From the NCBI GenBank assembly GCA_003972865.1, contig QOAX01000277.1:1-33810 (forward strand): DNA of 33,810 bases, given 5' to 3'. The stretch's first letter is position 1; every line of letters begins with the position of its first letter. The position numbers were made by a program, and so were the translations under genes. Below the pieces are notes generated by a model. The model had not been told where the DNA came from, made no database searches, and was given only the letters and a program-made list of their open reading frames with translations. The DNA is from Verrucomicrobiota bacterium. Its GTDB lineage: Bacteria; Verrucomicrobiota; Verrucomicrobiia; Limisphaerales; UBA1096. Positions 1-33,810 of this stretch are shown here, piece after piece.

Positions 1-1110
1 GGCCAGTTCGCGGCCAGCAACCACGCGTTCGAGCAGGCGGAAAAGCGGATCGCGTTTTACGAACGGCAGGCCAAGTTGCGGCTGTCGAGGGAGGCCACCG
101 GACTGCTGACCAACCTGGCCGCATTGCCGTACGAGGGGCGCGGCTACGATCGCGTGATGCTCAACACGTATCAGGCGCTGAATTACCTGCAGCTTGGCCA
201 AGCAGAGGCTGCGCTCGTCGAGCTGCGCCAGGCACACGCCGAGCAGGACGCCGAGGTCGTCCGCAACGCCCGCCGCATCGTCGCCGCCCGCAAGTCCGCC
301 GGTGAATACGAGCGATCCATCCGCCGCGTGAACCTCGACGAACTCCAGCCGGACATCGCGTTGGACTACGGCGCGTTTGTTAATCCGTTCACCGACTTTC
401 TGCACGCTCTCTGCCTCTGGAGCCTTGCAGCCGATGACCGCGAAAACGCACTCGTCTCCCTCCGCCGCATTCACTCGACGCTGGGCGGCCCGGAGTTTCT
501 CGCCGACGAGATCAAGCGGGTTGACCGCATCCTCAGCGGCGCAAAGCACCCCGACCTGACGTACGTCATCTTTGAAACCGGCGTGGCGCCGATCCGCCGC
601 GAGGTTCGGCTCGACGTGCCGTTGTTCGATAAAAATGTGCCTTACGTCGCGGCGGCGTTTCCACGGCTTGAGCGGCGTGGGCGCTCCACTCCCGCGAACG
701 TTGCCATCGGCGAGGCCAAGCACAGCACCACGCTGATTTGCGACATGGACGCCGTGGTCGCCCGCGACTTTCGCACCGAGTTGCCAGCGGTGATTTTCCG
801 CACGCTGGCCGCCTCCGCGGCCAAGGCGGCAATGGCCAAAAAAGCCCGGGAGGAAGCCGGTGACCTCGGCGCCATCGCTGGTTTTTTGTACCAAGCCGCC
901 GGCGCGCAGGCCGATCTCCGCACGTGGACCACACTGCCGAAGGAGTTTCGAGTTTGCCGTGTCGAGACGCCGGGCGACCGCAAACTGACGCTGCTCGTTG
1001 GTCCGCAAAAAAGCGAAGTCGCGGTGAATACAGGCCGCGTGAACGTGGTCTGTGTTAAAAGCTTCGCGCCGGATGCGCCCTTGAAGATTCAGCAATTTCG
1101 ACTAAAATAA
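1..1110 (+). CDS. Hypothetical protein, 5'-truncated by the window edge. The N-part is helical and TPR-like. It resembles the uncharacterised COG3014-type proteins found next to LpoB-like lipoproteins.
   Basis: Frame 1 is open from nt 1 (GQFAASNHAFEQAEKRIAFYERQAKL precedes the listed TTG at 76). The stop is at 1108-1110, and a 9-nt gap separates it from the next same-strand gene. The family assignment is from memory of the neighbourhood only. Confidence 0.5.
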   Translation, partial: GQFAASNHAFEQAEKRIAFYERQAKLRLSREATGLLTNLAALPYEGRGYDRVMLNTYQALNYLQLGQAEAALVELRQAHAEQDAEVVRNARRIVAARKSAGEYERSIRRVNLDELQPDIALDYGAFVNPFTDFLHALCLWSLAADDRENALVSLRRIHSTLGGPEFLADEIKRVDRILSGAKHPDLTYVIFETGVAPIRREVRLDVPLFDKNVPYVAAAFPRLERRGRSTPANVAIGEAKHSTTLICDMDAVVARDFRTELPAVIFRTLAASAAKAAMAKKAREEAGDLGAIAGFLYQAAGAQADLRTWTTLPKEFRVCRVETPGDRKLTLLVGPQKSEVAVNTGRVNVVCVKSFAPDAPLKIQQFRLK

Positions 1111-1119
1111 ACCGCAGAC

Positions 1120-1743
1120 ATGAAACCGCTTGTCAAACTTATCACCGCCGCCGTGCTGCCAGCGCTCGCGCTGGGCTGTGCCACGGCCAAGTACATCGAC
1201 CACGACGGCCGCGACAGTGTCGTCAACGTGGGCCAAATCAACACGCAGGACTGGATTCGCGCCGCCAACGAGTTGACGCAGTCGCTGCTGCTCTCCGGCG
1301 CGATTCAGGGCGTTGCTGGCAAACCTAAAATCCTGATGATCGGCCGCATCAAAAACAACACCACGCAGCACATCGACACCGACAGTTTAATGAAAAAAAT
1401 CCGCGTGGCCCTGAATAAGGGCGGCCGGGCGCTGACGACCACGGCCGTTGGCCTCGACGGCCCGGAGGACGAGTCGTCCAAGGCAGTGCGCGAGTTGCGG
1501 GCCGACGACGAATTCAACCAGTCAACCATCCCAGGCAAAGGCAACCTCGTCTCGCCCGACTACAGTTTGTCCGGCAAGATCATCCAAAACGACGCCCGCG
1601 CCAGGCGTGGTTTGCTTCCAACAATCAAGCAATCCGAGTTCGCCTTCCAACTCTCGCTGACCGACCTGAAAACCGGCTTGGCCGTTTGGGAGGAAGAAAA
1701 GCTCATCGTCAAGCAGGGCTCACGCGCCGCCGTCGGCTGGTAA
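1120..1743 (+). CDS. Lipoprotein, LpoB-like (penicillin-binding-protein activator fold, COG3417-like)
   Basis: ATG at 1120. Signal peptide with a lipobox (MKPLVKLITAAVLPALALGC). The pattern KILMIGRIKNNTTQHIDTDSLMKKIRVALNKGG ... YSLSGKI ... LSLTDLKTGLAVWEE resembles LpoB-family proteins. Confidence 0.6.
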   Translation: MKPLVKLITAAVLPALALGCATAKYIDHDGRDSVVNVGQINTQDWIRAANELTQSLLLSGAIQGVAGKPKILMIGRIKNNTTQHIDTDSLMKKIRVALNKGGRALTTTAVGLDGPEDESSKAVRELRADDEFNQSTIPGKGNLVSPDYSLSGKIIQNDARARRGLLPTIKQSEFAFQLSLTDLKTGLAVWEEEKLIVKQGSRAAVGW

Positions 1744-1748
1744 GCCAA

Positions 1749-1764
1749 GCGCTTGGCCAAGCGC
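1749..1764. repeat. Perfect 16-nt palindrome GCGCTTGGCCAAGCGC, a copy of the iterated TTGGCCAA palindrome, lying 5 nt after the stop of the LpoB-like gene
   Basis: Read directly: gc gcttggccaa gcgc at 1749-1764. It is self-complementary. Confidence 0.95.
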
Positions 1765-1823
1765 AAATAACTTTCCGAAATCACGGATCGCGGTGATAAT
1801 GCCCGCGCCTTTGGGGCAACAAT

Positions 1824-2405
1824 ATGGACTGGCATTTCCGCTCACGCTCAAACCACTGCAACGACTGCGAAAGCGCGTTCGAGGACAAACACCCGTACCA
1901 CACGATTCTCTTTCGGGGCATGGAAAGCCTCGAGCGAATGGATATCTGCCCCGGTTGCTGGAAGCAAAAACACGAAACCGAGCCCGGCGCGATGGGCGGC
2001 TATATCTCCCATTGGCAGGGCGTTTACGAGGTGCCGCCGCCGCCGCCCGAGGCCATTCAAAAGGACAACGCCGAGACTCTGCTCAAAAAACTGATCGAAC
2101 AGAACGACCCCGAACACACGGAGGCCTGCTTCATTCTCGCCGTGATGCTCGAGCGCAAGCGCGTCATCAAAAACAAGGACCAGGTTCGCAACGAGGACGG
2201 CGGGCGCATGCTGATTTACGAGCACACGAAAACGGGAGACGTCTTCACCATCCTCGATCCTGCACTGAAACTAACCGAGTTGGGCGACGTGCAGGCCAGG
2301 GTCACTGAGCTGCTCGAGCACGGACTCGACCCGCCCGCCGCTGACGAAGCCGCAGAGCCCTCCGGGGAACCGGAGCAAGTTGCTTCAACCGTAGATGAAT
2401 CCTGA
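1824..2405 (+). CDS. Hypothetical protein with an N-terminal four-Cys zinc-ribbon-like motif
   Basis: ATG at 1824. CNDC...CPGC motif (HCNDCESAF...MDICPGCW). Overlaps the rnc start by 11 nt, which suggests co-transcription. No family recognised. Confidence 0.6.
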   Translation: MDWHFRSRSNHCNDCESAFEDKHPYHTILFRGMESLERMDICPGCWKQKHETEPGAMGGYISHWQGVYEVPPPPPEAIQKDNAETLLKKLIEQNDPEHTEACFILAVMLERKRVIKNKDQVRNEDGGRMLIYEHTKTGDVFTILDPALKLTELGDVQARVTELLEHGLDPPAADEAAEPSGEPEQVASTVDES

Positions 2406-3096
2406 CCCCACCGAGTTGCAGGCGTTGGAGCAAACGCTCGGCTACGAGTTTCGTGATGTGAGCCTGCTGCAGCTTGCCATTACGCACCCCTCGGCTTCCG
2501 GCAACCAATCGAAGCCGTCCGATGACAATCAGCGGATGGAATTTCTCGGCGACGCCGTTTTGCAGGCGGTGATCTCCGAGGCGCTCTACCGGCTTCATCC
2601 CGATAAGGATGAAGGCCACCTGACCAAGGCCCGCGCCGGGCTGGTCAACGGCACATCACTGGCCGCCAAGGCCGCCGCGCTTGGCCTCGAGCAACACCTC
2701 GTCCTCGGTCACGGCCAGCGCACGGAATTTGAACGCGGCAAGGAGTCCGCACTGGAGGATGCCCTTGAGGCGCTGGTCGCCGCGCTGTATCTCGACGGCG
2801 GGCTGCACGCCGCAAATGACTTTGTAATTCGTGTCTTTGCGGATGAACTGGCCAACCCGGACAGCATCCCCACAATCGAAAACCCGAAGGGCGAGTTGCA
2901 GGAACGGCTGCAGGGCGGTACCGGCGTATCGCCGACGTACGAACTGCTCAGCGCCTCCGGCCCGGCTCACGCCCGGGAGTTTGAAGTTGCTGTCCTGCAC
3001 GCCGGCGATGAGCTAGGCCGTGGTTCGGGGGGCAGCAAAAAAGAAGCCGAGTCGCAGGCCGCCTTGGCCGCCTTGGCCAAGCTGCGCGACGAGTAG
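2395..3096 (+). CDS. rnc: Ribonuclease III
   Basis: LGYEFRDVSLLQLAITHPS plus the RNase III signature NQRMEFLGDAVLQ. C-terminal dsRBD ending GSGGSKKEAESQAALAAL. Confidence 0.95.
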   Translation: MNPDPTELQALEQTLGYEFRDVSLLQLAITHPSASGNQSKPSDDNQRMEFLGDAVLQAVISEALYRLHPDKDEGHLTKARAGLVNGTSLAAKAAALGLEQHLVLGHGQRTEFERGKESALEDALEALVAALYLDGGLHAANDFVIRVFADELANPDSIPTIENPKGELQERLQGGTGVSPTYELLSASGPAHAREFEVAVLHAGDELGRGSGGSKKEAESQAALAALAKLRDE

Positions 3097-3102: not shown

Positions 3103-3954
3103 TCAGGCAATCGAATCGAAGTCGAGTGCAATATCGACCGACGGTGCGGAGTGGGTTAGCGCGCCAACCGAGATAAAATCCACTCCTGTCTCGGCAATTT
3201 CACAAACCGTCTCCAGTGTCACGCCTCCGCTGGCCTCGGTCCTGGCGCGGCCATCGATCCGCTTGATGGCTTCTCGGAGTTCGTCGCAGTTCATGTTGTC
3301 GAGCAGGACGATGTCCGCGCCGGCGTCTGCCGCTGTCTGTGCCTGCTCGACCGTGTCGGCCTCCACCTCGATTTTCAATTTCGGTGACGCCTCGCGTGCC
3401 CGCGCCACCGCTGCGGTGACATCGCCATCAAGTGCGACCAGGTGGTTGTCCTTGATCATCACCTGGCCATAAAGGCCAACCCGATGATTCGTGCCGCCGC
3501 CGCTGGCCACGGCGTATTTCTCCAGCGCGCGCCAGCCGGGAGTCGTCTTGCGGGTGTCGAGAATCTGCGCCCGGGTGCCGGCGACCTGCTCGACGAACCG
3601 CGCCGTGAGAGTGGCCACGCCGGCCAGGCGCTGGACGAAGTTGAGGGCGGTGCGCTCCGCCGTGAGCAGCGCGCGCGTTGGGCCCTCCACACGAAGCAGC
3701 GCTTGGCCAAGCCGGCCCTGTTGGCCGTCGAGAACCTCGATGCCAAACTCCACGCGCTCATCCACCTGCTCAAACGCGGCCAGGGCAAGATCGACCCCGG
3801 CCATGACCAGCGGCTCGCGGGCGACCATCACCGCCGTCGCGAACGAGTCCTCCGGCACCAGGGCCTGGGTCGTCACGTCGCCACTGCCGATGTCCTCGGC
3901 CAGGGCGGCCTTGACCAGCGGCAGGTAATCGTTCGGTGCGAGCGGTTCCGGCAT
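3103..3954 (-). CDS. nadC: Nicotinate-nucleotide pyrophosphorylase (carboxylating), also called quinolinate phosphoribosyltransferase
   Basis: LVKAALAEDIGSGDVTT, TRKTTPGWRALEKYAVASGGGTNHRVGLYGQVMIKDNH and VEADT...LLDNM motifs. I chose the internal ATG at 3954 (MPEPLAPNDYL) rather than the ORF-track start at 4044, which would overlap the divergent gene. Confidence 0.9.
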   Translation of the reverse strand: MPEPLAPNDYLPLVKAALAEDIGSGDVTTQALVPEDSFATAVMVAREPLVMAGVDLALAAFEQVDERVEFGIEVLDGQQGRLGQALLRVEGPTRALLTAERTALNFVQRLAGVATLTARFVEQVAGTRAQILDTRKTTPGWRALEKYAVASGGGTNHRVGLYGQVMIKDNHLVALDGDVTAAVARAREASPKLKIEVEADTVEQAQTAADAGADIVLLDNMNCDELREAIKRIDGRARTEASGGVTLETVCEIAETGVDFISVGALTHSAPSVDIALDFDSIA

Positions 3955-4042
3955 CGGCAAAAGTCTTGGCCAAGCGGCCGCCGGAATGAAGCTCAAACCG
4001 TTTTTTCTTCCCAAGCGGGAGGCATTGCTGGATAGTCCACGC

Positions 4043-4726: not shown

Positions 4727-4770
4727 TTCGGCGATTGGCAAAACCGGACGCCACTGTTACGCTGGCCGTG

Positions 4771-5581: not shown

Positions 5582-6673
5582 ATGCTGGAACGGTTTTTTA
5601 TCGCGTTGGCCATCGGCTTGGCCGCCCCACATTTGTCGGCGCAGGTCAACGTCCAGCTCGAGGCGCTCAAGCGGTTGAAGGACATCGACCTCGACACCAA
5701 TCCGGCGATCAAAAAAGTGGTGCTCGACATCCTCGAGTCGTCGCGTGGCCAGGCGGCATTTGTCGAGATCGTGCGTGATTTCAGGCTGCCCGGCCACGAG
5801 GCGGAGCTGCTCCAGTACGCCCAGGCGCATCCCAACGATTCCACTGGCGTCGAGGCAATCCGCCTGCTGCTCAATGACGCCGGCTTGAAGCTGATCCGCG
5901 CCGCCATCGACGGGGAGAACGCCACCGGCACAGTCACCGCGTTGGCCAACGCGCAGGCACCCGAGGCCGAGCCGGTGCTGCTGCGATTGGCCAAGGACGC
6001 CAAAAAGCCGCTGGCCCTGCGCACGATTACCGTCAAAGGCCTGGCCAAGGCCAAGACCGGCGCAAGGGCACTTTTGACCGAGGCCAAGGCCGGGCGGCTC
6101 CCGGCGGACATGAGTTTCGCCGCCGGCAACGCACTGCGCAGTGTCCGCTGGAAAAACCTGCGCGCGCAGGCGGCCAAGCTGTTCCCGCCACCGCAGGGCC
6201 TTGGCCAAGCGCTGCCGCCCGTGGCCAAGCTCGTCGCGATGAAGGGCGACATCGCCAACGGTGAGAAAATTTTCTTCCGGCCGCAAAGCACCTGCGCCAC
6301 CTGCCACCAGATCAACAGCAGGGGCATCGACTTCGGCCCGAAACTCTCCGGCATCGGCACCAAGCTCGGCCGTGAGGCGTTGTTGCTCTCCATCCTCGAC
6401 CCCAGCGCCGGCATCTCGTTCGGGTATGAGGCGTGGTTGTTGAAAACAAAAAACGACGCCGAGGTGCTGGGCATCATCACCAGCCAGACCAATGACGAGG
6501 TGACGCTCAAGGTGCCCGGCGGCATTTCTATCACCTACAAGGCGGCGGATATCGCCAGGCGCACGCAGTTGCCGACCAGTATCATGCTGCCCGGACTGCA
6601 GGCAACGATGACGCCGCAGGAACTAGTGGACATGATCACCTATCTGCACAGCCTCAAGCAGGCCAAGCCGTAG
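5582..6673 (+). CDS. Secreted HEAT-like repeat protein with a C-terminal c-type heme-binding domain (Pirellula/Verrucomicrobium type)
   Basis: Signal peptide MLERFFIALAIGLAAPHLSAQ. CATCH (CxxCH) followed by GIDFGPKLSGIG...LLLSILDPSAGIS, as in the TIGR02603-like domain (recalled from memory). The start codon lies 1 nt after the folE2 stop. Confidence 0.75.
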   Translation: MLERFFIALAIGLAAPHLSAQVNVQLEALKRLKDIDLDTNPAIKKVVLDILESSRGQAAFVEIVRDFRLPGHEAELLQYAQAHPNDSTGVEAIRLLLNDAGLKLIRAAIDGENATGTVTALANAQAPEAEPVLLRLAKDAKKPLALRTITVKGLAKAKTGARALLTEAKAGRLPADMSFAAGNALRSVRWKNLRAQAAKLFPPPQGLGQALPPVAKLVAMKGDIANGEKIFFRPQSTCATCHQINSRGIDFGPKLSGIGTKLGREALLLSILDPSAGISFGYEAWLLKTKNDAEVLGIITSQTNDEVTLKVPGGISITYKAADIARRTQLPTSIMLPGLQATMTPQELVDMITYLHSLKQAKP

Positions 6674-6716
6674 CCGTCGTCTTTACAAAGCCCCGGCGCT
6701 TGGCCAAGCTCCGTGC

Positions 6717-8251: not shown

Positions 8252-8276
8252 TCCGCAGCAAAAGATATTTTGTGGG

Positions 8277-8308
8277 CGCCCCGCTTGGCCAAGCGGGGCG
8301 TTTTTTTT
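8277..8308 (+). terminator. Rho-independent terminator of efp. It is a 24-nt perfect palindrome built around GCTTGGCCAAGC, followed by T8, and sits between convergent efp and the PfkB kinase gene.
   Basis: cgcccc-gcttggccaagc-ggggcg at 8277-8300, then tttttttt at 8301-8308. It lies 26 nt after the efp stop and ends 2 nt before the stop codon of the convergent gene. Confidence 0.8.
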
Positions 8309-8310: not shown

Positions 8311-9366
8311 TCAAAACTCCGGCTCGAGCCTGGACTTGTATTTGTATTTCTTGGCCAAGGCTTGCACGCTCCGGAGTGACTTCATGCCGCCGGTGCAGGA
8401 TGGGTCGGAGAGGCAGGCGGCGGCGGCGCAGACAGCCGTCTCCAGGCACTTGGCCAAGTCCCATTCCTCGTGCAAGCCAAGCAGCATGCCGGTGCAGAAG
8501 GCGTCGCCCGCCCCGGCCGCGCCAACGATGTCCCTGGCCGGGATTCGCAATGAGGATTGCAGCACGTCCTCGCCCTTTCGCGTGCGCGCGAACCCGCCCT
8601 CCGGAAAGTGGATCACCACCAGTTCGCCAACGCCCATCTGCAACAACGCGCCGGCGGCATGCCGAAGCGCCACGATGTCCAGATTGTCGTCGTCCTGCCG
8701 GATCTTGAAACCGGTCGTCTTGCCCGCCTCGACTTCATTCAGGATGCAGTAGTCGGTGTATTGCAGTGCGGGGGTGACGACCCTGGCAAACCGGTCGCTG
8801 TCTTCGCTCACGGCGTCGATGCTTGTCCGCAGCCCGGCCGCCTGCGCTGCCGCCAACAGCTTAGCCGCCTTGGTGCCGTGTTTTTTGTCGGGACTGTCCA
8901 ACTCGTTGAGCAGGAGCAGATAGCCGAGGTGGAAAAACCGGGCCTTGGTTTTTTTGAAATCAAGATCGCTGCCGTCCCAGAGCGCGTTGGCACCACGGTT
9001 GTGAAAAAACGTCCGGTTGCCGCCCTTGGTCACGGTCATGACATCCGTGTAGGAGGTCGGGGCATCGGGGGTGACCTTGAGGTTTTTGGTATCTATCTTG
9101 TGCCTAACGCAGTCGTCGAGGATCAGATTGCCGAACGCATCGTTGCCAACCAGGCCGGCGGCAGCCAACGGGATATCGGCTCCCAGCTTGGCAAAGTTGA
9201 CGAGCAGGTTGTAAGGCGAGCCGCCGGTGCCGGTGATGGCGGTGCCGGTGATGTTGGCCAATTGCTCCCGCTGTGGGTACACATCGATCATCTTCACCTG
9301 ATCGATAATCCAGTTTCCACCAGCCAGAATCCCCTTGCGGACGGATGCTTTTGTTGCAGCGGGCAT
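8311..9366 (-). CDS. PfkB-family carbohydrate kinase (ribokinase-like)
   Basis: GGSPYN near the N-terminus and the C-terminal PfkB signature VGAAGAGDAFCTGMLLGL. ATG at 9366. Confidence 0.85.
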   Translation of the reverse strand: MPAATKASVRKGILAGGNWIIDQVKMIDVYPQREQLANITGTAITGTGGSPYNLLVNFAKLGADIPLAAAGLVGNDAFGNLILDDCVRHKIDTKNLKVTPDAPTSYTDVMTVTKGGNRTFFHNRGANALWDGSDLDFKKTKARFFHLGYLLLLNELDSPDKKHGTKAAKLLAAAQAAGLRTSIDAVSEDSDRFARVVTPALQYTDYCILNEVEAGKTTGFKIRQDDDNLDIVALRHAAGALLQMGVGELVVIHFPEGGFARTRKGEDVLQSSLRIPARDIVGAAGAGDAFCTGMLLGLHEEWDLAKCLETAVCAAAACLSDPSCTGGMKSLRSVQALAKKYKYKSRLEPEF

Positions 9367-9952: not shown

Positions 9953-9974
9953 CTCGGCGGAAAACGTAGCCAAA

Positions 9975-11255
9975 TTACTTGGCCAAGACAACGGCGTAGT
10001 TGCGTTTGCCCCGGCGCAATAGCAGATATTTGCAGAACAACAGGTCGCCAGACTGTAACTTGTGCTGCTCGTCATCAGTTCGCCGGTTGTTCACATACAC
10101 GCCACCGCCCCTGACGTCCTTACGCGCCTGGCCACGCGACTGGGCCAGGCCGGCCTCGTGCAGCAGCTCCGGCAGCCAAAGCCCCTCGCCGCCAAAACGG
10201 TCTAGGCCGATTTCATGCGTTGGCACCTCGCCGGCAATCTCCCGAAAGGTCGCCTCGGTGATGCCGTCCAGCTCGCCGCCAAACAAAATCTCACTGGCGC
10301 GAATGGCCTCGTTGGCCGCCGCCTCACCGTGTGCCAGGGCGGTCACTTCCTTGGCCAAGGCCTTGTGAGCGATGCGCGCTTGCGGCTGCTCCGAGTGCTG
10401 CCGGGCCAAGGCCTCGATCTCGTCCCGGTGCAGGAAGGTGAAAAAATTCAGGTATCGCACCACGTCGCGGTCATCAACACGCACCCAATACTGGTAAAAC
10501 TGGTAGATGCTCGTGCGGGCCACGTCGAGCCACACGGCACCGGCCTCGGTTTTGCCGAACTTCGTGCCGTCGGCGTTGGTGATAAGCGGCAGCGTCAGGC
10601 CAAACGCCTGGCGGTTTTGCCGGCGGTGGATCAGGTCGATGCCGGCAGTGATGTTGCCCCATTGGTCGCTGCCGCCGATTTGCAGTTCGCACTGGTGCTG
10701 CCCGCACAGGTGATGGTAATCGAGCGCCTGCAGGATCATGTAGCTGAACTCGGTGTAGCTGATGCCGACATCGCGATCCTCCATCCGTGCGCGTACGCTC
10801 TCCTTGGCCACCATTACGTTGACCTTGAAATGCTTGCCGACATCGCGCAGCACGTCGAGGAACGAAAGCGGCGCGGTCCAGTCGGCGTTATCCACCATCA
10901 GGGCCGCGTTGGTTTCCTCTCCAAAATCCAGAAAGCTGGCCAACTGTTTTTTGACTCCCTCAATGTTGGCCTTGAGCTGCTCGTGGGTGAGCAACTGGCG
11001 CTCGGCGCTCTTGCCGCTGGGGTCACCTATCGAGCCGGTTGCCCCGCCGGCGACAACGATCGGTTTGTGGCCAAACTGCTGGAAGCGGCGCAGCGCCAGC
11101 AACGGCACGAGGTTGCCGACGTGCAGGCTGTCGGCCGTGGGATCGAACCCGCAGTACAGCGTCACGGCCCCCTTGGCCAGGCGCTGTGCAAGCCCCTCCC
11201 GATCCGTGCAGTCGGAGACCAGTCCGCGCCATTCCAGTTCCTCGATGATGCCCAT
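9975..11255 (-). CDS. tyrS: Tyrosine--tRNA ligase
   Basis: GFDPTADSLHVGNLVPL (HIGH region), GGATGSIGDPSGK, KFGKTE (KMSKS equivalent) and a C-terminal S4-like domain. The ATG at 11255 (MGIIEELEWRGL) was chosen. Confidence 0.95.
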   Translation of the reverse strand: MGIIEELEWRGLVSDCTDREGLAQRLAKGAVTLYCGFDPTADSLHVGNLVPLLALRRFQQFGHKPIVVAGGATGSIGDPSGKSAERQLLTHEQLKANIEGVKKQLASFLDFGEETNAALMVDNADWTAPLSFLDVLRDVGKHFKVNVMVAKESVRARMEDRDVGISYTEFSYMILQALDYHHLCGQHQCELQIGGSDQWGNITAGIDLIHRRQNRQAFGLTLPLITNADGTKFGKTEAGAVWLDVARTSIYQFYQYWVRVDDRDVVRYLNFFTFLHRDEIEALARQHSEQPQARIAHKALAKEVTALAHGEAAANEAIRASEILFGGELDGITEATFREIAGEVPTHEIGLDRFGGEGLWLPELLHEAGLAQSRGQARKDVRGGGVYVNNRRTDDEQHKLQSGDLLFCKYLLLRRGKRNYAVVLAK

Positions 11256-11306: not shown

Positions 11307-11328
11307 GCTTGGCCAAGCGCTTGGCCAA
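11307..11328. repeat. Tandem copies of the iterated palindrome (GCTTGGCCAAGC GCTTGGCCAA) between the rpsA terminator and tyrS
   Basis: Read directly: gcttggccaagcgcttggccaa at 11307-11328. Confidence 0.95.
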
Positions 11329-17074: not shown

Positions 17075-19478
<2,404 letters not shown>

Positions 19479-25236: not shown

Positions 25237-25238
25237 AA

Positions 25239-26120
25239 TTATCCTTGGTCCATTCCTTTTTTAAACGGAGTCTTTAGTTGACTCAAAAAATCCAAGGGAT
25301 ATTTTCTATTTTTCAAGCCCAATTCCCGGACCATCTTGGTCTTAGGGAGATACCAAGTACCAAATACCAAGTCCCATATGATTAAGTTATTTCCGTAGTT
25401 TTTATTGGACTCACCGAGGACAACCGAGTGGTGCCAACGATGCAGTTCTGGGCCGCTTACAATGTAATTTAACGGTCCCAATTTGAGTTCAATATTACAG
25501 TGCTGAAAAAATCCGTTTATGGCAAAAAAAACAAAATAAAGAGCCAGCACCTTGCCTGAAACTCCGAGAACAATGAAAGGTAATGAGTCAAATAAAAATT
25601 GCAGGCCTTTTTCAATGGGATGAAATCTTCCCACATTGATCCAGTACAGTTTATGAGGCGAATGATGCACGGCATGCAGACGCCATAAAAGCATCCATTT
25701 ATGGCTCAATCTATGCAACCAATAACGCAAAAAATCCGCACTTAAAACCATAAGAACTGCCTGCGTGTAAACTGGCCATGTATCGGGCCATAATCGATCA
25801 AATGTGTATCCACTTGAACGGAGCATTTTAAGTAGAGTAATGGAAAAGAAAAACGAAAGAATTTTGACTAAAAGGACTTGAACCAAAAACATATAAGACA
25901 AGTCGTTTAACACATCTCCTCTTTTCGCTAACCATTCTTGTCGATGTGGAAATTTTAATTCCATTAAAGTGATAACAGTCAGCCCTACCGCTACTGGGAT
26001 ATATGTTGCAATTTGGAGCGAAAAATCAAGATCGAGGATTAGATAATGTAATAATAGGCATGTTCCCATCAATACCGGGTAAGTAACTATTGGAACTATT
26101 ATCTTGAAAAATTCTTTCAT
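25239..26120 (-). CDS. Fatty acid hydroxylase / sterol desaturase-family integral membrane di-iron oxygenase
   Basis: Histidine boxes HRLSH, HAVHH and HRWHH with the expected spacing. Several hydrophobic helices in the N-terminal half. ATG at 26120. Confidence 0.85.
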   Translation of the reverse strand: MKEFFKIIVPIVTYPVLMGTCLLLHYLILDLDFSLQIATYIPVAVGLTVITLMELKFPHRQEWLAKRGDVLNDLSYMFLVQVLLVKILSFFFSITLLKMLRSSGYTFDRLWPDTWPVYTQAVLMVLSADFLRYWLHRLSHKWMLLWRLHAVHHSPHKLYWINVGRFHPIEKGLQFLFDSLPFIVLGVSGKVLALYFVFFAINGFFQHCNIELKLGPLNYIVSGPELHRWHHSVVLGESNKNYGNNLIIWDLVFGTWYLPKTKMVRELGLKNRKYPLDFLSQLKTPFKKGMDQG

Positions 26121-26407
26121 TTTTCACTTTTCGTTGACGGTTTCCCGCTGTTGAGGAAGCAAGTTATCACATATCATCTGAAAACCGTCCATTGATAAAA
26201 TCAATGATAACATCGACTGAATCAATACTCACCCCGCACGACTCCAAGGGGTTACTGCGCCTGCCCCCATTCTTCGACCACAGCTCGTGATGGGGTCAGT
26301 TCTTGTTATTGACAAGTAACGGGTATTCAAACAGGGGTCACCCTGCGGACTAACATTTTAGAGCGCATTATTTTGACAACCCGTCCCGCCGGCCCGGACA
26401 TCACGTA

Positions 26408-29593: not shown

Positions 29594-29599
29594 GATGAT

Positions 29600-32296
29600 T
29601 TACTTGGCTTCGATGGTGAAGAACCGCGCCGCTTGGTCTGCTTGGGCGCTGGAAGTGCCGACGCCGCCGTCGAACATCAGCCCTTCGGCCACCGGCTCGT
29701 ACGGCCCGGCTACCGAGCCGCTTGCCTTCACGGTGTAGCTCGCCGCAGGACTCGCCTCCCAGTTCAGGGTGATGTCGCCGTTGGCCATGCTGACTGTGAT
29801 TTTGATCTCCGGTATGTCCACTGCCGGATCTTCCGCGAACGGCGAGCCGCTTGGCCAAGCGCCGGCCGAGACGAGCGCGTCGGCCACTGTGCTGTGATCC
29901 GCGAACGCCCCGTTCAGGCCAGGATGCCGCGTCATCGAGCCTTTGCCGGTCGGCTTGCCGAACTGGATGCGGTCGATGACGTGCCCGTCGGCGTTTCGCA
30001 GCGTGATCGTGTCACCACTGTTGTTGAGGCCCAGCCCGCTTGTGCCCTCGGTGGCCGGCAACGCCAGCACGCCGTCGCCGAGCACCGGCTCGGAGCCGGA
30101 CGACCGACCGCCGTACACGATCACCGCGCCGCGCTTGGCCAAGACGTCGCCCTCATAAAAATTACTCCGCAGCGCCACGGCGTCTGAGAGGCTCCAGCCG
30201 GCCAGGTCCACCTCCGCCTGGCCAAGGTTGGCGATCTCGACGAACTCATCCTCGACGCTGATCCGGTTCGAGTCGCTCGGCGTCTCGCGGTGCAGCGGGT
30301 TGTAATGGCCATCCGTCGCCTTGCCGGTCGGGTTGGCCAAAAACTCGGTGACGGCCACCTGCTGTTCCGCCGCGCTTGGCACATAAATGTCCCACTCCAG
30401 CGTCGCCACGCCTTCGTTGTTCTCCGCCTCGAGCGACAGGTCGAACGGCTCGCCAGCATCCGCCTCGCCGGCGGTCAGCACCAGCTTGGCCGTGACTTCG
30501 ATGGCGGGGTTTGCCGAGAGCACCCAGTCGCCCGTCGGCGTCACGGTCACTTCGCCCCCGGCGGGGTTTTTGATGACTGCCTCGATCACCACCGTCTCGC
30601 CCGGCAGCAGAAAATGATCCGTGCGCGAACTCTCGAGCGGCCGCCCGGGGCGAATCAGGTTTTCGTACTTCAGCGTGAACTCGATCGTCGGCAGCTTCGG
30701 CCCGGAGATGTCCTCGATGCGTGTCGGCATCAATTGATAGCCACCCTCCCGCGGCCGGTCGCGCATATACTGCGAGAGCACGCCGGTGACGTTGACAGCG
30801 GTGCCGGGGAACGGCTGGGCGATGATCGACTTGATGCGCGAGTCGATGCGCAGGGTGAAGGTCATCCCGTCGGCATCGGTCAGCGTGTAGTTGGCTCCGC
30901 CGGAAAACTTTGAGCCGCCGCCGCTGTCGATCTCCACCCCGTCGGCGACCACGAGCGAGCCTTCGAGCGCCTCCATCGCCGCGGCGTCATCCGACTGCAT
31001 GAAGTCGAGCTTGGCCGGCTCGGGCAGGGTGTTGTCGCTGCTCACGACCTTGACCAGGTGCATCGCATTGCCGGCGTCCGGCACGAACTGCAGCAGGCCG
31101 TTGTAATGGCCCAGCGGCGCGGAGACTCGCACCTTGTCGCCGGCTTTCGGATGGCTCGACTTGCCGCTGCGGAAGTACACCGCGATCCCGGCGGTGTCAT
31201 CCTGAAAATAAAACAGCGAGTGACTGCCGCCGGTCATGTTCGTGTGCGTGGTGACGATGCCCTCGGCGGTGAAAATGGTCTTGGTGTCCGACGGCTCAAG
31301 GTTTTCGTTTACCATGGCACGCAGACTCTTGATGGTGACGGCGTCGCCTCCGGGCGAGTCCTGCACCTTTAGCGTAACCGTGTCGCTCATCACGCTGCCG
31401 GCATCGTTGCTGACGGTCACTGCATAGTCGCCGGCGTTGTTCGCCGACACGTCGGCCAGCTCAAGGGCGCTGGACGTCGCGCCGTCGATCTCCGAGCCGT
31501 CCTTGCTCCACTGGTATGCCAGCGGCTCCGAGCCGGTGGTCACGACGGAAAACAAAATCGTCTTGCCCGCAAGCACGGTCTGCGACACCGGCTGCGAGAG
31601 GATGGACGGCTCGTCACCGCCACCTCCATCGGTCACGTCGCTGAGGCTTGTCCCGACTATCAAGTTGTCGACCAGCATCGCGCCGATGTTTTTGGCCTGC
31701 CGAAACGCGAAGCCGGTCACGTCCACCGCCGAGCCGTTGTCGGTGGTGGTGACCCCGCCTGATGCATCCCCCTCCGGGTCGATCCAGAGCGTCGTGCTCG
31801 CATCCGCGAGGCTCATTGCGATGACGACCTTGTAAACCGTGTCGAGATGAAGGTCGTTGTCCACCACGGCGGTGGACGCTTTGCCCTTCGAGGTGACACC
31901 AATCCGAAACGCGCCTCCCTCCGCGCCGGTGGCCTGGGCAATGATGCGCGCCCGGTAACCAAAACCGTCGTCCCTGAAATGCGCAAAATAACTCCCGCCG
32001 CCACTGGGCAACTCGGTGAACTCCACGTCGAACGACGCGTACATCGTGCCGCCGCTCGATTTCTTGAACGGCCCGCCGGCCAGCTTCGCGTGGGAGTCCT
32101 CCGAGTTGGCCTGCGTCAGGACCAGTTGGCCGTCGACCACCTCCGTCTGCTCGTTGATGCCGCTGTGGTTTTTCCAGATGTCCGCCGCCTGCACGACGAT
32201 CGGGCCGTCGTCGTAGCTGAACGATTCATCGAGCACCACCTCGGCCCGCGCCGCCACAAGGCTGGCCATGGCTGCCATTATGATGAGTCTCTTCAT
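29600..32296 (-). CDS. Large secreted protein with an Ig (I-set-like) domain, two YhcR/ExeM-type OB-fold-like modules and a lamin-tail domain (LTD)
   Basis: Signal peptide MKRLIIMAAMASLVAARA. Ig-like segment PLAYQWSKDGSEIDG...AGDYAVTVSNDAGS. OB-like segment FTAEGIVTTHTN...LFYFQDDTAGIAVYF...GDKVRV...YNGLLQF. LTD segment VAVTEFLANPTG...DEFVEIANLGQAEVDLAGWSLSD...ITLRNADGHVID. Confidence 0.75.
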   Translation of the reverse strand: MKRLIIMAAMASLVAARAEVVLDESFSYDDGPIVVQAADIWKNHSGINEQTEVVDGQLVLTQANSEDSHAKLAGGPFKKSSGGTMYASFDVEFTELPSGGGSYFAHFRDDGFGYRARIIAQATGAEGGAFRIGVTSKGKASTAVVDNDLHLDTVYKVVIAMSLADASTTLWIDPEGDASGGVTTTDNGSAVDVTGFAFRQAKNIGAMLVDNLIVGTSLSDVTDGGGGDEPSILSQPVSQTVLAGKTILFSVVTTGSEPLAYQWSKDGSEIDGATSSALELADVSANNAGDYAVTVSNDAGSVMSDTVTLKVQDSPGGDAVTIKSLRAMVNENLEPSDTKTIFTAEGIVTTHTNMTGGSHSLFYFQDDTAGIAVYFRSGKSSHPKAGDKVRVSAPLGHYNGLLQFVPDAGNAMHLVKVVSSDNTLPEPAKLDFMQSDDAAAMEALEGSLVVADGVEIDSGGGSKFSGGANYTLTDADGMTFTLRIDSRIKSIIAQPFPGTAVNVTGVLSQYMRDRPREGGYQLMPTRIEDISGPKLPTIEFTLKYENLIRPGRPLESSRTDHFLLPGETVVIEAVIKNPAGGEVTVTPTGDWVLSANPAIEVTAKLVLTAGEADAGEPFDLSLEAENNEGVATLEWDIYVPSAAEQQVAVTEFLANPTGKATDGHYNPLHRETPSDSNRISVEDEFVEIANLGQAEVDLAGWSLSDAVALRSNFYEGDVLAKRGAVIVYGGRSSGSEPVLGDGVLALPATEGTSGLGLNNSGDTITLRNADGHVIDRIQFGKPTGKGSMTRHPGLNGAFADHSTVADALVSAGAWPSGSPFAEDPAVDIPEIKITVSMANGDITLNWEASPAASYTVKASGSVAGPYEPVAEGLMFDGGVGTSSAQADQAARFFTIEAK

Positions 32297-32312
32297 GGTT
32301 CGGTTGGTGAAA

Positions 32313-33158
32313 TTATTGCCGGAACGGCGCGTTCCAGATCACGTCCGGGTTCAGCCCCTCGAATGTGCCCGCTCCGTTGGTGATGGAGTGCCGCGAGAAA
32401 TAGGTCGCATGTCCGTCGATGAACGACAGCACGCCGCCCTGCCCCTTGTGCCGCTCCGGGAACGCCCGCCAACGCGCCGCCGGGTTCACCGAGTAGTACG
32501 GATTCCCCAGCCCCTCCGACGAGCTGAAATACATGTCCATCGTGCCGACGGTCGCGGAGGGGTTGGGCAGATCAGTCGCCTTGGGCATCTTGGGGTACGG
32601 CAGGTATGAGTTCACCGTCCCGCGCTTCAGGTCGATGTTCATCGCGTAGCTGAAAAACCCGTGCCGCCCGCCGCCCTTTAGCTGCTTCAATTCCTCTGTC
32701 GTCATCTTGGCGTTCGGGCAGTGCCAAATCTTCCCCAGGCCGCCGGGGAACGGCAGGTTTTTGACATTGTCCTGATACACCACCGTCGGCCGCTTCCAGT
32801 ACTGCACCAGCGGTTTCTCTCCCATGAACGGCGGCAGCAGGTTAAACCAGGCGTTCGGGTCCTTCGGCGTGCCGGAGGGCGGCGGCGCGCCAGGGTATTT
32901 GCCATTGGCGCCCATGCCGTCGCGGGGCAGCAAGTCGTCGTTCTCCACAAGATAGAGCTGCAGCCCCAAGCCCCACTGGCGATGATTCGAGAGGCAATTG
33001 GCCAGGCGCGCCTGATCCTTCGCCTTGGCCAGGGCCGGCAACAGCAACGCAGCCAAAATCGCAATAATGGCAATCACCACCAGCAACTCAACCAGCGTGA
33101 ACGCCGCCCGCCATCGGCTGTGCAAAAAACGGTTTATGCTAAAGAAGAAGCTGACCAT
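32313..33158 (-). CDS. Prepilin-type N-terminal cleavage/methylation domain protein (type II secretion/pseudopilin-like, DUF1559 / H-X9-DG class)
   Basis: [29 protein letters not shown] is the canonical prepilin methylation motif plus hydrophobic helix. C-terminal [11 protein letters not shown]. It ends 16 nt upstream of the LTD gene start. Confidence 0.85.
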
Positions 33159-33243
33159 GCAAGCTGTCTCAATGCCGAAAAAAGGAGGCTATAACCCCGG
33201 CCCCACAACGCAAGAAAAGTCGAACGGTTGGGCTGTTCTGGCA

Positions 33244-33259
33244 GCGCTTGGCCAAGCGC
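33244..33259. repeat. Perfect 16-nt palindrome GCGCTTGGCCAAGCGC, in the intergenic region between the aminotransferase and pseudopilin genes
   Basis: Read directly at 33244-33259. It is identical to the copy at 1749-1764. Confidence 0.95.
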
Positions 33260-33319
33260 AGAGATAACGACTCAGATTTCCAGGATTGGGAAGGGTTATT
33301 TTTTTGACAGTCTCCTCGG

Positions 33320-33810
33320 CTACAGACTTTTACAGAAGTCTCCCAGGCGGGCCATGCCGGTCTGGATGTTCTCCATGCTGGTGGCGTAGCTGATGCGGAA
33401 GTTGTTGTCGGCGCCGAAGGCGATGCCGGGGACGGCGGCCACCTTGGCCTGATCGAGCAGGCGCTCGCAGAACTCGGCCGACTTGAGGCCGGTCGCGGCC
33501 ATGTTCGGGAACAGGTAAAAGGCGCCCTTGCTGTTGATGCAGCTGATGCCGGGCATGGCGTTCAACTGCTCGGCGGCGTGGCGGCGGCGTTTGTCGAACT
33601 CGGCCAGCCACTCGCCGAGATGATCCTGCGGGCCGTTGAGCGCGGCGACGGCGCCCTTTTGCGCGAAGGACGTCGCGTTGCTGGTGCTGTGGCTTTGCAC
33701 GGCGTTGATGGCCTGCGCGATCGGCTTGGGCGCGGCGAGGAAGCCGATGCGCCAGCCGGTCATCGAGTAGGCCTTGGCCAAGCCGTGCACGATGATGGTG
33801 TGCGCCAGGT
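33320..33810 (-). CDS. Class I/II pyridoxal-phosphate aminotransferase (aspartate aminotransferase-like), 5'-truncated by the window edge
   Basis: GLAKAYSMTGWRIGF (PLP-lysine block) and PGIAFG...FRISYATS. The frame stays open to the window end. Confidence 0.85.
   Translation of the reverse strand, partial: LAHTIIVHGLAKAYSMTGWRIGFLAAPKPIAQAINAVQSHSTSNATSFAQKGAVAALNGPQDHLGEWLAEFDKRRRHAAEQLNAMPGISCINSKGAFYLFPNMAATGLKSAEFCERLLDQAKVAAVPGIAFGADNNFRISYATSMENIQTGMARLGDFCKSL

Follow-up and report, generated by a model that had tools for sequence, protein, structure and literature searches.

The window, a 33,810-nucleotide stretch of DNA from an uncultured marine Pedosphaerales-type lineage of Verrucomicrobiota, carries 36 copies of the 8-mer TTGGCCAA. 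A preliminary description had listed 36 copies, and its count and other positions were confirmed; only the first copy was misplaced, starting at 194 and not 195, as that description's own 12-mer start of 192 implies. We found ten copies of the 12-mer GCTTGGCCAAGC exactly where it had placed them and, matching its count, two of the 16-mer GCGCTTGGCCAAGCGC (starts 1751 and 33246), and the other palindromic contexts that it had quoted, at 5942, 8450 and 10351, are real. Using public gene starts, we assigned 20 copies of TTGGCCAA to codon phase 0 (Leu-Ala-Lys/Asn), 7 to phase 1 (x-Gly-Gln), 2 to phase 2 (Trp-Pro) and 7 to intergenic DNA, in agreement with its claim that the word occurs between genes and in at least three frames within them.

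Copies along the window

The first copy (194..201) lies in a 12-bp palindrome, GCTTGGCCAAGC, within an unknown gene of 438 aa (phase 1; motif in 6 of 8 aligned genomes). An intergenic GCGCTTGGCCAAGCGC copy follows 10 nt past the stop of an LpoB-like gene (1753..1760; 6 of 9 genomes), where a hairpin folds (z = -2.7). CCAAGC precedes this copy in 12-nt phase. The RNase III gene has one copy (3073..3080; phase 0, Leu-Ala-Lys; 5 of 10 genomes), nadC has a 12-mer (3703..3710; phase 1; 7 of 11 genomes), and the gap between the divergent nadC and GDSL lipase genes holds an intergenic copy (3966..3973; public nadC start 3954; 9 of 11 genomes). Three copies occupy the cytochrome c gene: one within the 16-bp palindrome CGCGTTGGCCAACGCG (5942..5949; phase 0; 4 of 13 genomes), where most relatives carry CTGGCCAA, one at 5987..5994 (phase 0; 5 of 14 genomes) and one at 6201..6208 (phase 1; 7 of 14 genomes, the remainder having TTGGCCAG). 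The intergenic 12-mer located 27 nt past the stop of the cytochrome c gene (6700..6707) is the best conserved site (12 of 14 genomes) and forms no significant RNA hairpin (z = +0.36). Between the convergent efp and pfkB genes, a 13-bp stem-loop (8274..8303; 8 of 15 genomes) uses an intergenic copy (8285-8292) as its loop (GGCC) and upper stem and is followed by a T-run; with a ΔG of -28 kcal/mol (z = -3.1), the predicted fold fits the pattern of an intrinsic terminator and could act in both directions. The pfkB-family kinase gene itself contains copies at 8351..8358 (5 of 15 genomes), 8450..8457 (as ACTTGGCCAAGT; 7 of 15) and 9254..9261 (9 of 15), all in phase 0. In tyrS, one copy forms the last three codons (9979..9986; Leu-Ala-Lys-stop); it is present in 2 of 15 genomes and is therefore probably a recent gain via an amino-acid change, and a second is embedded in CCTTGGCCAAGG (10351..10358; phase 0; 9 of 15 genomes). 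Upstream of tyrS, an intergenic tandem pair, TTGGCCAAGCGCTTGGCCAA, in 12-nt phase (11309..11328; copies in 8 of 12 and 5 of 12 genomes) is directly downstream of rpsA's own terminator, which it adjoins (11334-11359, minus strand).

The HEAT-repeat gene carries five copies, at 13853..13860 (phase 0; 2 of 8 genomes), 13952..13959 (phase 0; 5 of 8), 14629..14636 (phase 1; 2 of 7), 14683..14690 (phase 1; 3 of 8) and 14996..15003 (phase 0; 6 of 7), the last being a 14-bp palindrome followed by GCGCTTGG in 12-nt phase; at 14629, five relatives have CGGCCCCA, different at 4 of 8 bases. The DUF1552 gene copy (16137..16144; phase 0; 1 of 8 genomes) is unique to the window genome, its relatives all showing TTGGCCAG. 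In the DUF1592/PSD gene, copies lie at 17668..17675 (phase 0; 3 of 7 genomes), 17995..18002 (phase 0; 1 of 7, private to the window), 18013..18020 (a 14-bp palindrome; phase 0; 3 of 7), 19078..19085 (phase 0; 4 of 7) and 19362..19369 (phase 1; 2 of 7), and the M28 peptidase gene has two (19859..19866, phase 0, 2 of 7 genomes; 20032..20039, phase 1, 5 of 7). The LTD/DUF5689 gene contains a 14-bp palindrome in phase 2, read as Trp-Pro and retained in conspecific strains (29851..29858), and two phase 0 copies (30135..30142 and 30333..30340). A perfect intergenic 16-mer (33248..33255) separates the aminotransferase and pilin-like genes, and a phase 0 copy (33774..33781) lies in the aminotransferase gene, which is truncated at the end of the window.

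A low-GC (0.44) insertion of 5.5 kb (20890..26406), missing from five syntenic relatives, served as a negative control inside the window. At the host rate it should contain 6.8 copies; we found 1 (Poisson P = 0.0085), and this sole copy (24345) has the off-consensus flanks TTTGGCCAAA, indicating that foreign DNA lacks the word.

A specific palindrome favored at the level of DNA

Dinucleotide-preserving shuffles of the window gave a mean of 0.79 copies of TTGGCCAA (maximum 4) and none of the 12-mer. Under Markov-corrected word statistics for the window (order 3), of the kind that the preliminary description had proposed genome-wide, enrichment rose from 15.6-fold for the 8-mer to 74-fold for the 10-mer CTTGGCCAAG and 294-fold for the 12-mer GCTTGGCCAAGC, and this series comprises the most exceptional words of the window. 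The one-off form CTGGCCAA occurs 11 times, to which the opposite strand adds 3 of TTGGCCAG. Spacing of TTGGCCAA is near exponential rather than even (coefficient of variation 1.03); copies cluster at short range and form pairs at 12 nt.

The enrichment survives correction for codon usage and peptide content, a point on which the preliminary description had staked its reading. In 1000 synonymous shuffles that kept the amino-acid sequence and codon pool of each gene fixed, 3.56±1.78 coding copies of TTGGCCAA were expected (maximum 11) and 33 were observed; for CTTGGCCAAG, 18 were observed against 0.82 expected. Leu-Ala-Lys/Asn tripeptides use the TTGGCCAA spelling in 20 of 28 cases, while codon usage predicts ~9%. 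With the remainder of the word fixed, all synonymous positions prefer the motif base (odds ratios of 9-170 vs codon usage): before GGC-CAA, CTT makes up 96% of CTN leucine codons as opposed to 12% of leucine codons genome-wide, and GCC makes up 95% of alanine codons inside the word vs 47% overall. The encoded tripeptides are themselves in excess (Leu-Ala-Lys/Asn 3.1-fold, x-Gly-Gln 2.65-fold), while reverse-order controls are not raised (0.74-0.84). The word enters genes in spite of codon preference, and even at the expense of protein sequence, and the bias behind its abundance acts on DNA. Protein, codon or RNA requirements, or transposition, are very probably not its source.

Across 505 independent sites, the flanking bases favor C at -1 (84%), G at -2 (61%) and C at -3 (58%). 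The unit read is cGCTTGGCCAAGCg, the full form of TTGGCCAA: a specific palindrome with two-fold symmetry that spans 10-14 bp, its information peaking in the central CTTGGCCAAG and weakening outward. Flank complementarity (0.743) is explained by independent base preferences (0.704 expected), which argues that specific bases are read and eliminates a generic hairpin as the unit. Bare GGCC is likewise eliminated (354 vs 358), being neither enriched nor avoided. It thus lends no support to restriction-modification as the basis, at which the preliminary description had hinted, and a regular-expression screen of ~770 kb of motif-rich DNA, a partial sample, detected no canonical methyltransferase motif. 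In a survey of five marine Verrucomicrobia MAGs, whose membership in this clade is uncertain, Hiraoka et al. detected neither a methylated motif nor a methyltransferase gene (PMC8919816). A methylation basis is therefore not supported.

Phylogenetic spread and turnover

All 14 of 14 syntenic relatives (74-90% nucleotide identity) had 4-16 copies per 10 kb. Unrelated control loci (n = 31, including Pirellulaceae and Chlamydiae) had 0-2.5 copies per 10 kb, and CTTGGCCAAG was not found in any of the 31. The comparison with related genomes suggested in the preliminary description thus revealed a word common to all sampled relatives and, as a frequent word, absent from unrelated genomes. Same-species flanks outside the window continued the pattern (11 copies in 8.9 kb; 10 in 10 kb). 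Among marine metagenome contigs matching the 16-mer, ~70 of 120 were saturated with the word, and by tetranucleotide signature the saturated contigs match the lineage at r ~0.93 and motif-poor ones at ~0.80. Sub-lineages differ in density up to ~4-fold. The palindrome is a property of the lineage, found about once per kb in the native DNA of this marine clade.

At 45 aligned positions one or more of the 15 genomes has the word, with mostly intermediate occupancy. At orthologous sites without it, the one-off forms CTGGCCAA and TTGGCCAG are the most frequent (52 of 161) and are themselves 3.6 times above expectation. Some relatives have forms part-way to the word; at 17995 these are TCGGAAAG and TTGGCCAG, which would be intermediates if the site arose stepwise. 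These site dynamics look like a drive. Constraint shapes placement: 7 of the 35 host copies fall within 1,340 bp of non-coding DNA, giving 5.2 copies of TTGGCCAA per kb vs 1.04 per kb in coding DNA (5 times; P = 0.001). Intergenic copies are conserved at 61% vs a 23.5% background (2.6 times), and coding copies at 37.5% vs 29.6%. Within the species, 2 losses were seen vs ~9 estimated from 1% divergence. Selection on function at each site would account for this strong intergenic retention and within-species conservation at least as well as a drive would.

Proposed basis and relation to known systems

We are confident that the word is a lineage-specific, genome-saturating palindrome in the class that also includes cyanobacterial HIP1 and the Pasteurellaceae and Neisseriaceae uptake sequences, and its abundance is very probably kept by a weak, pervasive fixation bias on double-stranded DNA. 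The codon, tripeptide, intergenic and lineage tests agree with the original proposal of a HIP1-like or uptake-like word under selection or biased repair. As a mechanism we tentatively favor a self-DNA recognition drive, which may well prove wrong. Here we infer both a protein, in the simplest case a symmetric dimer, that reads the two palindrome halves and the stage at which it would favor DNA with the word, namely exchange through uptake or recombination of same-species DNA. A bias of this kind during exchange is an existing proposal for uptake sequences and a recent one for HIP1, and we propose the same for this word. Conversion of near-matches into matches would slightly outpace the opposite change, so that the word would accumulate where coding sequence tolerates it and pile up in the scant unconstrained intergenic DNA; recently imported DNA would be without it. 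Some intergenic copies have apparently been co-opted to form the stem and loop in a terminator-like hairpin.

Uptake sequences are known inside terminator-like hairpins, which the stem-loop at 8274..8303 resembles. Against the proposed drive, every uptake sequence characterised so far is, to our knowledge, asymmetric, and a palindromic one would be new; we also know of no demonstration of natural transformation in Verrucomicrobiota. Periodicity of HIP1 has been reported at the 10-90 kb scale. Our literature search returned no prior description of TTGGCCAA as a genomic motif. Its density (~1000-1240 per Mb) is within the range that Elhai gives for HIP sequences, and experiments now tie HIP1 to the efficiency of transformation (bioRxiv 10.1101/2024.09.10.611283; 10.64898/2026.06.24.733823). 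The TTGGCCAA lineage offers a counterpart, outside cyanobacteria, of the unexplained HIP1 palindrome.

Abundance of the word and the coding constraint upon it

By eye, the preliminary description had counted 36 copies of the palindromic 8-mer TTGGCCAA (hereafter, the word) in the window, and we recovered all 36 at the listed starts, except that the first copy begins at 194 rather than 195. The ten copies of the 12-mer GCTTGGCCAAGC and the two of the 16-mer GCGCTTGGCCAAGCGC were likewise confirmed, and CTGGCCAA was present 11 times. Dinucleotide-preserving shuffles of the window held 0.79 ± 0.98 copies of the word (maximum 4) and none of the 12-mer. Under the Markov-corrected k-mer statistics that had been proposed, the 8-mer, the 10-mer CTTGGCCAAG and the 12-mer stood 16-, 74- and 294-fold over order-3 expectation in the window, where the word and those overlapping it were the top and most exceptional 8-, 10- and 12-mers; they were also the most frequent 8-mers of 552 kb of pooled lineage DNA. 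The word reached a density of 1065 per Mb over the window as a whole, 1237 in host DNA (the window less an island at 20890-26406) and 1035 in the pooled DNA. Enrichment of the 8-mer came to 46-fold against dinucleotide shuffles, 13-16-fold against order-3 Markov models and 9-fold against a codon-preserving null, and that of the 10-mer to 74-95-fold across window and pooled DNA. In the pooled DNA enrichment grew with word length, from 1-fold for GGCC through 2.8-fold (TGGCCA), 13-fold (8-mer) and 95-fold (10-mer) to 427-fold (12-mer). A separate word, GTAGCTGA, occurred six times in the window (10740, 10755, 23493, 32213, 32646 and 33386, all on the plus strand; 0.34 expected); since it was not enriched in 524 kb of related and pooled lineage DNA, it is probably a chance or peptide quirk.

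Placed on public gene starts, 29 copies of the word were coding (20 in phase 0, read as Leu-Ala-Lys/Asn; 7 in phase 1, x-Gly-Gln; 2 in phase 2, Trp-Pro) and 7 were intergenic, as the reading by eye, with copies in three frames and between genes, had suggested. This genic majority, mainly in two codon phases, is consistent with a by-product of coding or RNA needs, such as would follow from preference for a certain peptide (Leu-Ala-Lys, Leu-Gly-Gln), from codon usage, or from hairpins in mRNA and terminators, and the preliminary description had allowed that the enrichment might disappear after correction for peptides and codons. The null for this correction was 1000 synonymous-codon shuffles within each gene, with proteins and per-gene codon pools kept (the shuffled pool contains the codons contributed by the motif itself). 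The enrichment persisted: 33 coding copies were observed against 3.56 ± 1.78 (maximum 11). The same null gave 0.82 copies of CTTGGCCAAG against 18 observed and 26 of TGGCCA against 71 observed, and GGCC showed no enrichment in this test (358 against 354 observed).

Codon choice carried the same signal. Twenty of the 28 Leu-Ala-Lys/Asn tripeptides were spelled TTGGCCAA, where codon usage predicted ~9%. Extended to 165,548 lineage codons, and with the remainder of the word held fixed, the analysis showed the motif base preferred at every synonymous position: TTG (70% in the word vs 21% overall; odds ratio 9), GCC (95% vs 47%; 23), GGC (97% vs 59%; 23), CAA (89% vs 37%; 14), AAG (94% vs 62%; 10) and CTT (96% vs 12%; 168). 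Compared with residue-shuffled proteins, Leu-Ala-Lys/Asn was 3.1-fold and [LIFV]-Gly-Gln 2.65-fold over-represented, and reverse-order and neighbouring control tripeptides stayed at 0.74-1.21; pressure from the word changes even proteins. The synonymous-shuffle excess, the codon bias and the tripeptide excess together lead us to conclude that the enrichment is real and acts on DNA.

A symmetric site and the placement of its copies

Flanking preferences were examined at 505 sites on independent contigs. Outside the word, position -1 was C in 84% of sites, -2 was G in 61%, -3 was C in 58%, and -4 was C or G. Complementarity between the flanks was 0.743, against 0.704 from independent base preferences, and no hairpin covariation beyond these preferences was found at the 505 sites. 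As flank complementarity is that predicted by base preferences, what is favoured is the specific symmetric 14-bp sequence cGCTTGGCCAAGCg and not any hairpin. These results show that the word is read as double-stranded DNA of two-fold symmetry and that the bias is independent of translation and RNA structure.

Intergenic copies provide a second view of the RNA question. One copy makes up the tip of a strong 13-bp stem-loop, with a T-run after it (8274-8303), between the convergent genes efp and pfkB, in an intrinsic-terminator pattern; the evidence for terminator copies consists of this one clear terminator-like hairpin, which is nonetheless what a by-product of RNA needs would produce. Against such an origin, the intergenic copies at 6700 and 3966, which are conserved best, either have no significant hairpin or lie away from 3' ends between divergent genes, and a tandem pair of copies sits just past a separate terminator-like hairpin that is rpsA's own. 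Enrichment in three codon phases as well as in intergenic DNA, the want of enrichment among reverse-order peptides and the flanks, which follow base preference without covariation, count against it in the same way. As a general explanation, a coding or RNA by-product is refuted by the synonymous-shuffle null, the peptide controls and the per-position codon bias, and we regard it as extremely improbable.

In host DNA, copy density was 5.2 per kb in non-coding sequence and 1.04 per kb in genes (P = 0.001), the former figure reflecting that host non-coding DNA totals just 1,340 bp. The longest open reading frames of nadC (3103-4044; public gene 283 aa), folE2 (4684-5580; 269 aa), a NusG paralogue (9419-10075; 177 aa) and tyrS (9975-11363; 426 aa) overrun the public gene starts, and for this reason copies 3966, 11309 and 11321 are counted as intergenic. 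The surplus of copies that pooled gene calls placed within the opening 10% of genes is probably the same ORF-start artefact. The NusG paralogue (9419-9952, minus strand) is of the UpxY/LoaP/RfaH antiterminator type and lies directly downstream of tyrS. Spacing between copies was near exponential (coefficient of variation 1.03), with a surplus of 30-100 nt gaps, and was not even at scales up to 10 kb, on contigs no longer than 34 kb.

Some copies are paired 12 nt apart as TTGGCCAAGCGCTTGGCCAA, which accounts for the frequency of CCAAGCGCTTGG, and certain intergenic copies are extended to palindromes of 16-24 bp. Numerous dispersed copies with such pairs and long palindromes might suggest remnants or targets of small mobile elements (REP, MITE or the target of a RAYT-type transposase). 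The copies themselves, at 8-14 bp, lie in frame in conserved orthologous genes and bring no indels relative to relatives; arrays in the 12-nt phase reach at most ~25 nt and none is longer; gains are point substitutions at orthologous positions; and no transposase is associated. A mobile-element origin is inconsistent with the alignments, and its probability is close to negligible.

An island served as an internal control. In five relatives the sequence runs straight from window position 20889 to 26407, so that the intervening 5.5 kb (20890-26406; GC 0.44) is an insertion private to the window genome. It contains one copy of the word, with non-consensus flanks, where 6.8 were expected (P = 0.0085), a deficit in foreign DNA that was measured on this one island. 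It encodes a TIGR00027/LCM-type SAM methyltransferase (of the small-molecule type, not acting on DNA), one member each of the enolase superfamily and the GH3 family, and a fatty-acid hydroxylase. Neither a tRNA nor an integrase was seen in it, nor any obvious repeat at its flanks, and tRNA and Rfam scans of the window returned none. The insertion stood out by its scarcity of copies, and the word is usable as a compositional marker for binning contigs of the clade and for flagging horizontally acquired islands.

Phylogenetic spread, conservation and turnover

The window carries the housekeeping genes tyrS, rpsA, efp, rnc, nadC and folE2 together with PVC-typical DUF1552, DUF1592/PSD and planctomycete cytochrome c domains. 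A near-identical protein belongs to Pedosphaera sp. in NCBI naming, and the matches listed in a search for tyrS homologues were proteins of 88-100% identity. A trio of genes lies on the minus strand at 28664-33158. One encodes a pilin-like protein of 281 aa that bears a prepilin N-terminal methylation motif; another, a protein of 898 aa that combines Ig, DUF5689, OB-fold and lamin-tail domains; and the third, an Exo_endo_phos nuclease of 309 aa. The 898-aa and 309-aa proteins together resemble a split ExeM/NucH extracellular DNase, in NCBIfam matches that are weak and below cut-off. The trio may form an apparatus that binds and degrades extracellular DNA; as evidence of uptake it proves nothing.

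Relatives were found by a TyrRS scan with one genome per species, which yielded 14 syntenic loci, all from marine Verrucomicrobia/Pedosphaera MAGs (protein identity 82-97%, DNA 74-90%). In the comparison with related genomes that had been proposed, all 14 carried the word at 4-16 copies per 10 kb, against 0-2.5 copies per 10 kb, and zero copies of CTTGGCCAAG, at 31 unrelated loci from the same scan (including Pirellulaceae and Chlamydiae). In the most divergent relative (L011; 51% GC) the top 8-mer remains TTGGCCAA, with flanks relaxed and T for C at position -1. Density differed by up to ~4-fold among close relatives (4-7 per 10 kb at the relatives' loci L002, L005, L008 and L011 vs 11-14 at L001, L004 and L007), and in low-density genomes window copies were conserved no better than random 8-mers; the force may be weakening, or shifting its preferred sequence, in some sub-lineages. 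Same-species DNA past both window ends had the same word density. A metagenome scan with the 16-mer found at least 120 loci, and the matches listed were bimodal: ~70 contigs were saturated (4-19 further copies per 10 kb) and ~30 were without another copy. Tetranucleotide composition of the saturated contigs correlated with the window at a mean r of 0.93, compared with 0.97 for known relatives and ~0.80 for the other contigs, like unrelated controls. The organism occurs widely in metagenomes from the sea and from vent plumes, and expression of rpsA was seen in metatranscriptome contigs. Scanning IMG/VR viral contigs for the 16-mer produced 27 chance-level matches, each single, and no saturated contig, which is uninformative on the clade's phages.

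Across 15 aligned genomes, 45 positions carried the word in at least one, most of them in a minority and three in more than 80%. Of 283 comparisons, 122 retained the window copy, where random 8-mers would give 85 (intergenic copies 61% vs 23.5% background; coding copies 37.5% vs 29.6%). Such conservation above background, 2.6-fold for intergenic copies and very high within species, would suit binding sites maintained in place, each an operator-like target for an abundant protein, nucleoid-associated or chromosome-organising, with every copy under purifying selection, which is how Xu, Lawrence and Durand read HIP1 (Xu et al. 2018). The 14-bp two-fold symmetric consensus fits a dimeric DNA-binding protein, and CCA was retained at 0.83 in the word against 0.26 outside, with GCC and CAA likewise better retained. 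Yet TTG and GGC were retained no better in the word than outside, coding copies were just 1.27 times as conserved as random 8-mers, most positions were occupied in a minority of genomes, and density ranged ~4-fold among close relatives. Uneven spacing at scales up to 10 kb argues against in-place sites as well, and thousands of sites per genome, with their amino-acid cost, would be much for a structural role. We hold this reading to be possible and rather doubtful.

The commonest orthologous alternatives were CTGGCCAA and TTGGCCAG (52 of 161), and these one-off forms were 3.6-fold over expectation genome-wide. At site 17995, relatives carry TCGGAAAG and TTGGCCAG, which stand part-way to TTGGCCAA, and at sites 14629, 19362 and 9979 the forms in relatives differ at several bases, with amino-acid changes. 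Among same-species strains (98.9-99.9% identity) just two copies were lost, both by C>T in GGCC: the copy at 5942 in L203 (now TTGGTCAA) and that at 11309 in L201 (now TTAGCCAA). The window has itself lost an ancestral copy at 6221, now GTGGCCAA. The picture is one of balance, between a directional force that makes and keeps copies and coding constraint. The force amounts to a ln(odds) of ~2-5 per position, a size that would fall within the range of weak selection or of a biased-conversion-type drive.

A passive mutational sink was also considered, in which deamination of the two methylated cytosines in CCTGGCCAGG, a pair of overlapping Dcm-type CCWGG sites, would yield CTTGGCCAAG, so that a Dcm-like methylase without Vsr repair makes the word. 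With perfect copies masked and under a first-order Markov model, CCWGG stood at 0.66-0.75 of expectation and CTTGG/CCAAG at 2.1-fold, and the commonest orthologous alternative was C-CTGGCCAA, all as such a process would leave them. The precursor is much too rare, however, as 552 kb contained 7 such sites (0.7 expected) and 439 of the 10-mer; Arg-to-Lys replacements would be required; CTAGG, the other predicted product, was not raised; and no methyltransferase was found in ~770 kb. Neither the central GCC/GGC preference (odds ratio ~23) nor that for CTT over CTC (odds ratio 168) is explained. This quantitative mismatch argues strongly against Dcm deamination as the origin of the word, which we judge very unlikely, and the leftover ~2-fold excess of CTTGG/CCAAG and the CCWGG depletion probably reflect degenerate copies of the word or, less likely, a Dcm-like process.

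Candidate mechanisms and relation to known systems

HIP1 is GCGATCGC, and cyanobacteria have the alternate HIPs GGGATCCC, TCGATCGA and CAGGCCTG (in Synechococcus PCC 6312); the last, reported by Xu et al. in one Synechococcus, is another GGCC-centred word. In Elhai's model of HIP1 the mechanism is linked to methylation. Applied here, an orphan DNA methyltransferase would act on the inner TGGCCA/GGCC, and methyl-dependent mismatch or very-short-patch repair would turn near-matches into matches, or methylated sites would be selected as marks for repair or replication. The anatomy is that of a HIP: a palindromic octamer surrounds a classic 4-bp/6-bp modification target, its one-off variants cluster at the outermost positions, and there are 1000-1240 copies per Mb. 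Both strain-specific losses are C>T inside GGCC, though these are two events only. A matching methyltransferase is present in every HIP-bearing cyanobacterial genome (PMC4390886), and TGGCCA, as a candidate m5C motif without a REBASE match, has been reported in a marine MAG or viral MAG (PMC8919816).

We searched for such an enzyme and found no DNA methyltransferase gene in the window or its flanks. A regular-expression screen of ~770 kb of motif-rich DNA, a partial sample and therefore a weak negative, returned no m5C motif (PCQ, ENV) and no confirmed amino-methyltransferase motif (DPPY), all 10 of the 10 amino candidates being other proteins by Pfam. Hiraoka et al. reported five marine Verrucomicrobia MAGs with neither methylated motifs nor methyltransferase genes, which may concern another clade (PMC8919816). 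Neither GGCC nor TGGCCA outside the word is enriched, the information spans 14 bp and exceeds typical methyltransferase targets, and long gaps are not rarer than chance, contrary to what a repair-strand signal requires. A methylation-linked mechanism is thus conceivable and, in our estimate, unlikely.

We favour, tentatively and at somewhat short of an even chance, a drive through uptake or recombination preference, which ranks highest among the readings, the methylation-linked and in-place alternatives each being a lesser possibility. A sequence-specific protein would underlie the bias, and uptake or recombination would favour DNA that carries the word, as in the drive model of uptake sequences. 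This reading accommodates the observed density, the distortion of the proteome, the excess of intergenic copies, the terminator-like hairpin built on a copy, the scarcity of copies in the island, the turnover and the apparent lack of a methyltransferase. Two difficulties attend a drive of this kind: to our knowledge, uptake sequences are not palindromes, and we know of no competence system, DNA receptor or uptake bias in Verrucomicrobiota. Research on HIP1 is itself heading toward an uptake/recombination view (bioRxiv 10.1101/2024.09.10.611283; 10.64898/2026.06.24.733823).

A more specific proposal, which we offer as a speculative possibility, is that the word is a methylation-independent signal for self-recognition or uptake that evolved independently of HIP1, a convergent genomic architecture. 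If so, uptake-type sequences would gain their first palindromic member, and Verrucomicrobiota (PVC) their first sign of whole genomes shaped by within-species DNA exchange; HIP-type words would be a general solution evolved repeatedly in bacteria rather than a cyanobacterial oddity, and the phenomenon would not depend on the methyltransferase link in cyanobacteria. For 30 years HIP1 has puzzled researchers, with comparisons kept to one phylum and abundance always alongside particular methyltransferases. The word is an independent instance, in an unrelated and globally distributed marine lineage, with a different sequence and no methyltransferase as far as seen, and it therefore offers a natural comparative test of which genes (uptake/recombination, repair, DNA-binding) are required. 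A caution also follows for protein analysis: in these proteomes, the occurrence of the tripeptides Leu-Ala-Lys and x-Gly-Gln and the use of TTG and CAA codons partly reflect pressure on the DNA.

Among known systems, the Dcm/Vsr skew of CCWGG in enterobacteria is similar in that a DNA-repair process shifts a short palindromic word and its one-off neighbours, but that skew is less than ~2-fold on a 5-mer and needs a methyltransferase and endonuclease pair, whereas here the shift is 10-400-fold on 8-14-mers and no such genes were seen. REP/BIME elements are likewise numerous palindromes, some just 3' of genes. REPs, however, measure 20-40 nt, occur solely outside genes and are spread by RAYT transposases, whereas the word's copies are ~80% genic and originate through point substitution.

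The likeness to HIP is closer. Both have a palindromic octamer core with an extended consensus; the density of ~1000-1240 per Mb is inside Elhai's 1000-2000 per Mb; over-representation is 13- to 95-fold or more; coding copies occur in all phases alongside non-coding ones; copies, and several codons within them, are conserved above controls; and one-off variants gather at outer positions. Both are lineage-specific, and one cyanobacterial variant is centred on GGCC too. The word differs in its host, a marine heterotroph lineage of Verrucomicrobiota and not a cyanobacterium, in a core of 50% GC in a 62% GC genome, in a specificity spanning 14 bp, in coding conservation weaker than reported for HIP1, and in that no cognate methyltransferase was found here, whereas Elhai found one in every HIP genome. 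Periodicity has been reported for HIP1 at a scale of 10-90 kb; the spacing of the word was measured up to 10 kb. In descriptive terms, then, the word has what defines a HIP as the top palindromic octamer, at ~1000 or more per Mb, in all frames and between genes, conserved above controls; it lacks the cyanobacterial host, and the cognate methyltransferase was not found in the DNA screened.

The uptake sequences of Pasteurellaceae (USS) and Neisseriaceae (DUS) occur about once per kb, with a core and flanks of falling information. They gather in tolerant frames, distort tripeptides, are enriched between genes and appear in terminator-like hairpin copies; they are scarce in recently acquired DNA, and their positions turn over at kept density, in accordance with molecular drive. 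The word shares this density, the graded flanks, the bias to tolerant frames, the proteome distortion, the intergenic excess, a terminator-like hairpin copy, the scarcity in the island and the turnover; orientation has no meaning for a palindrome. It departs from them as a perfect palindrome with symmetric flanks, known uptake sequences being asymmetric and read in one orientation, so that from sequence features it would pass as an uptake sequence in everything but asymmetry. A full-text literature search (palindrome, Verrucomicrobia, uptake and over-representation contexts) found no description of the word as a genomic motif. On these descriptive likenesses and the want of a published description, we therefore file it as a word of the HIP/USS class, in a new phylum and with a new sequence, possibly without a link to methylation.
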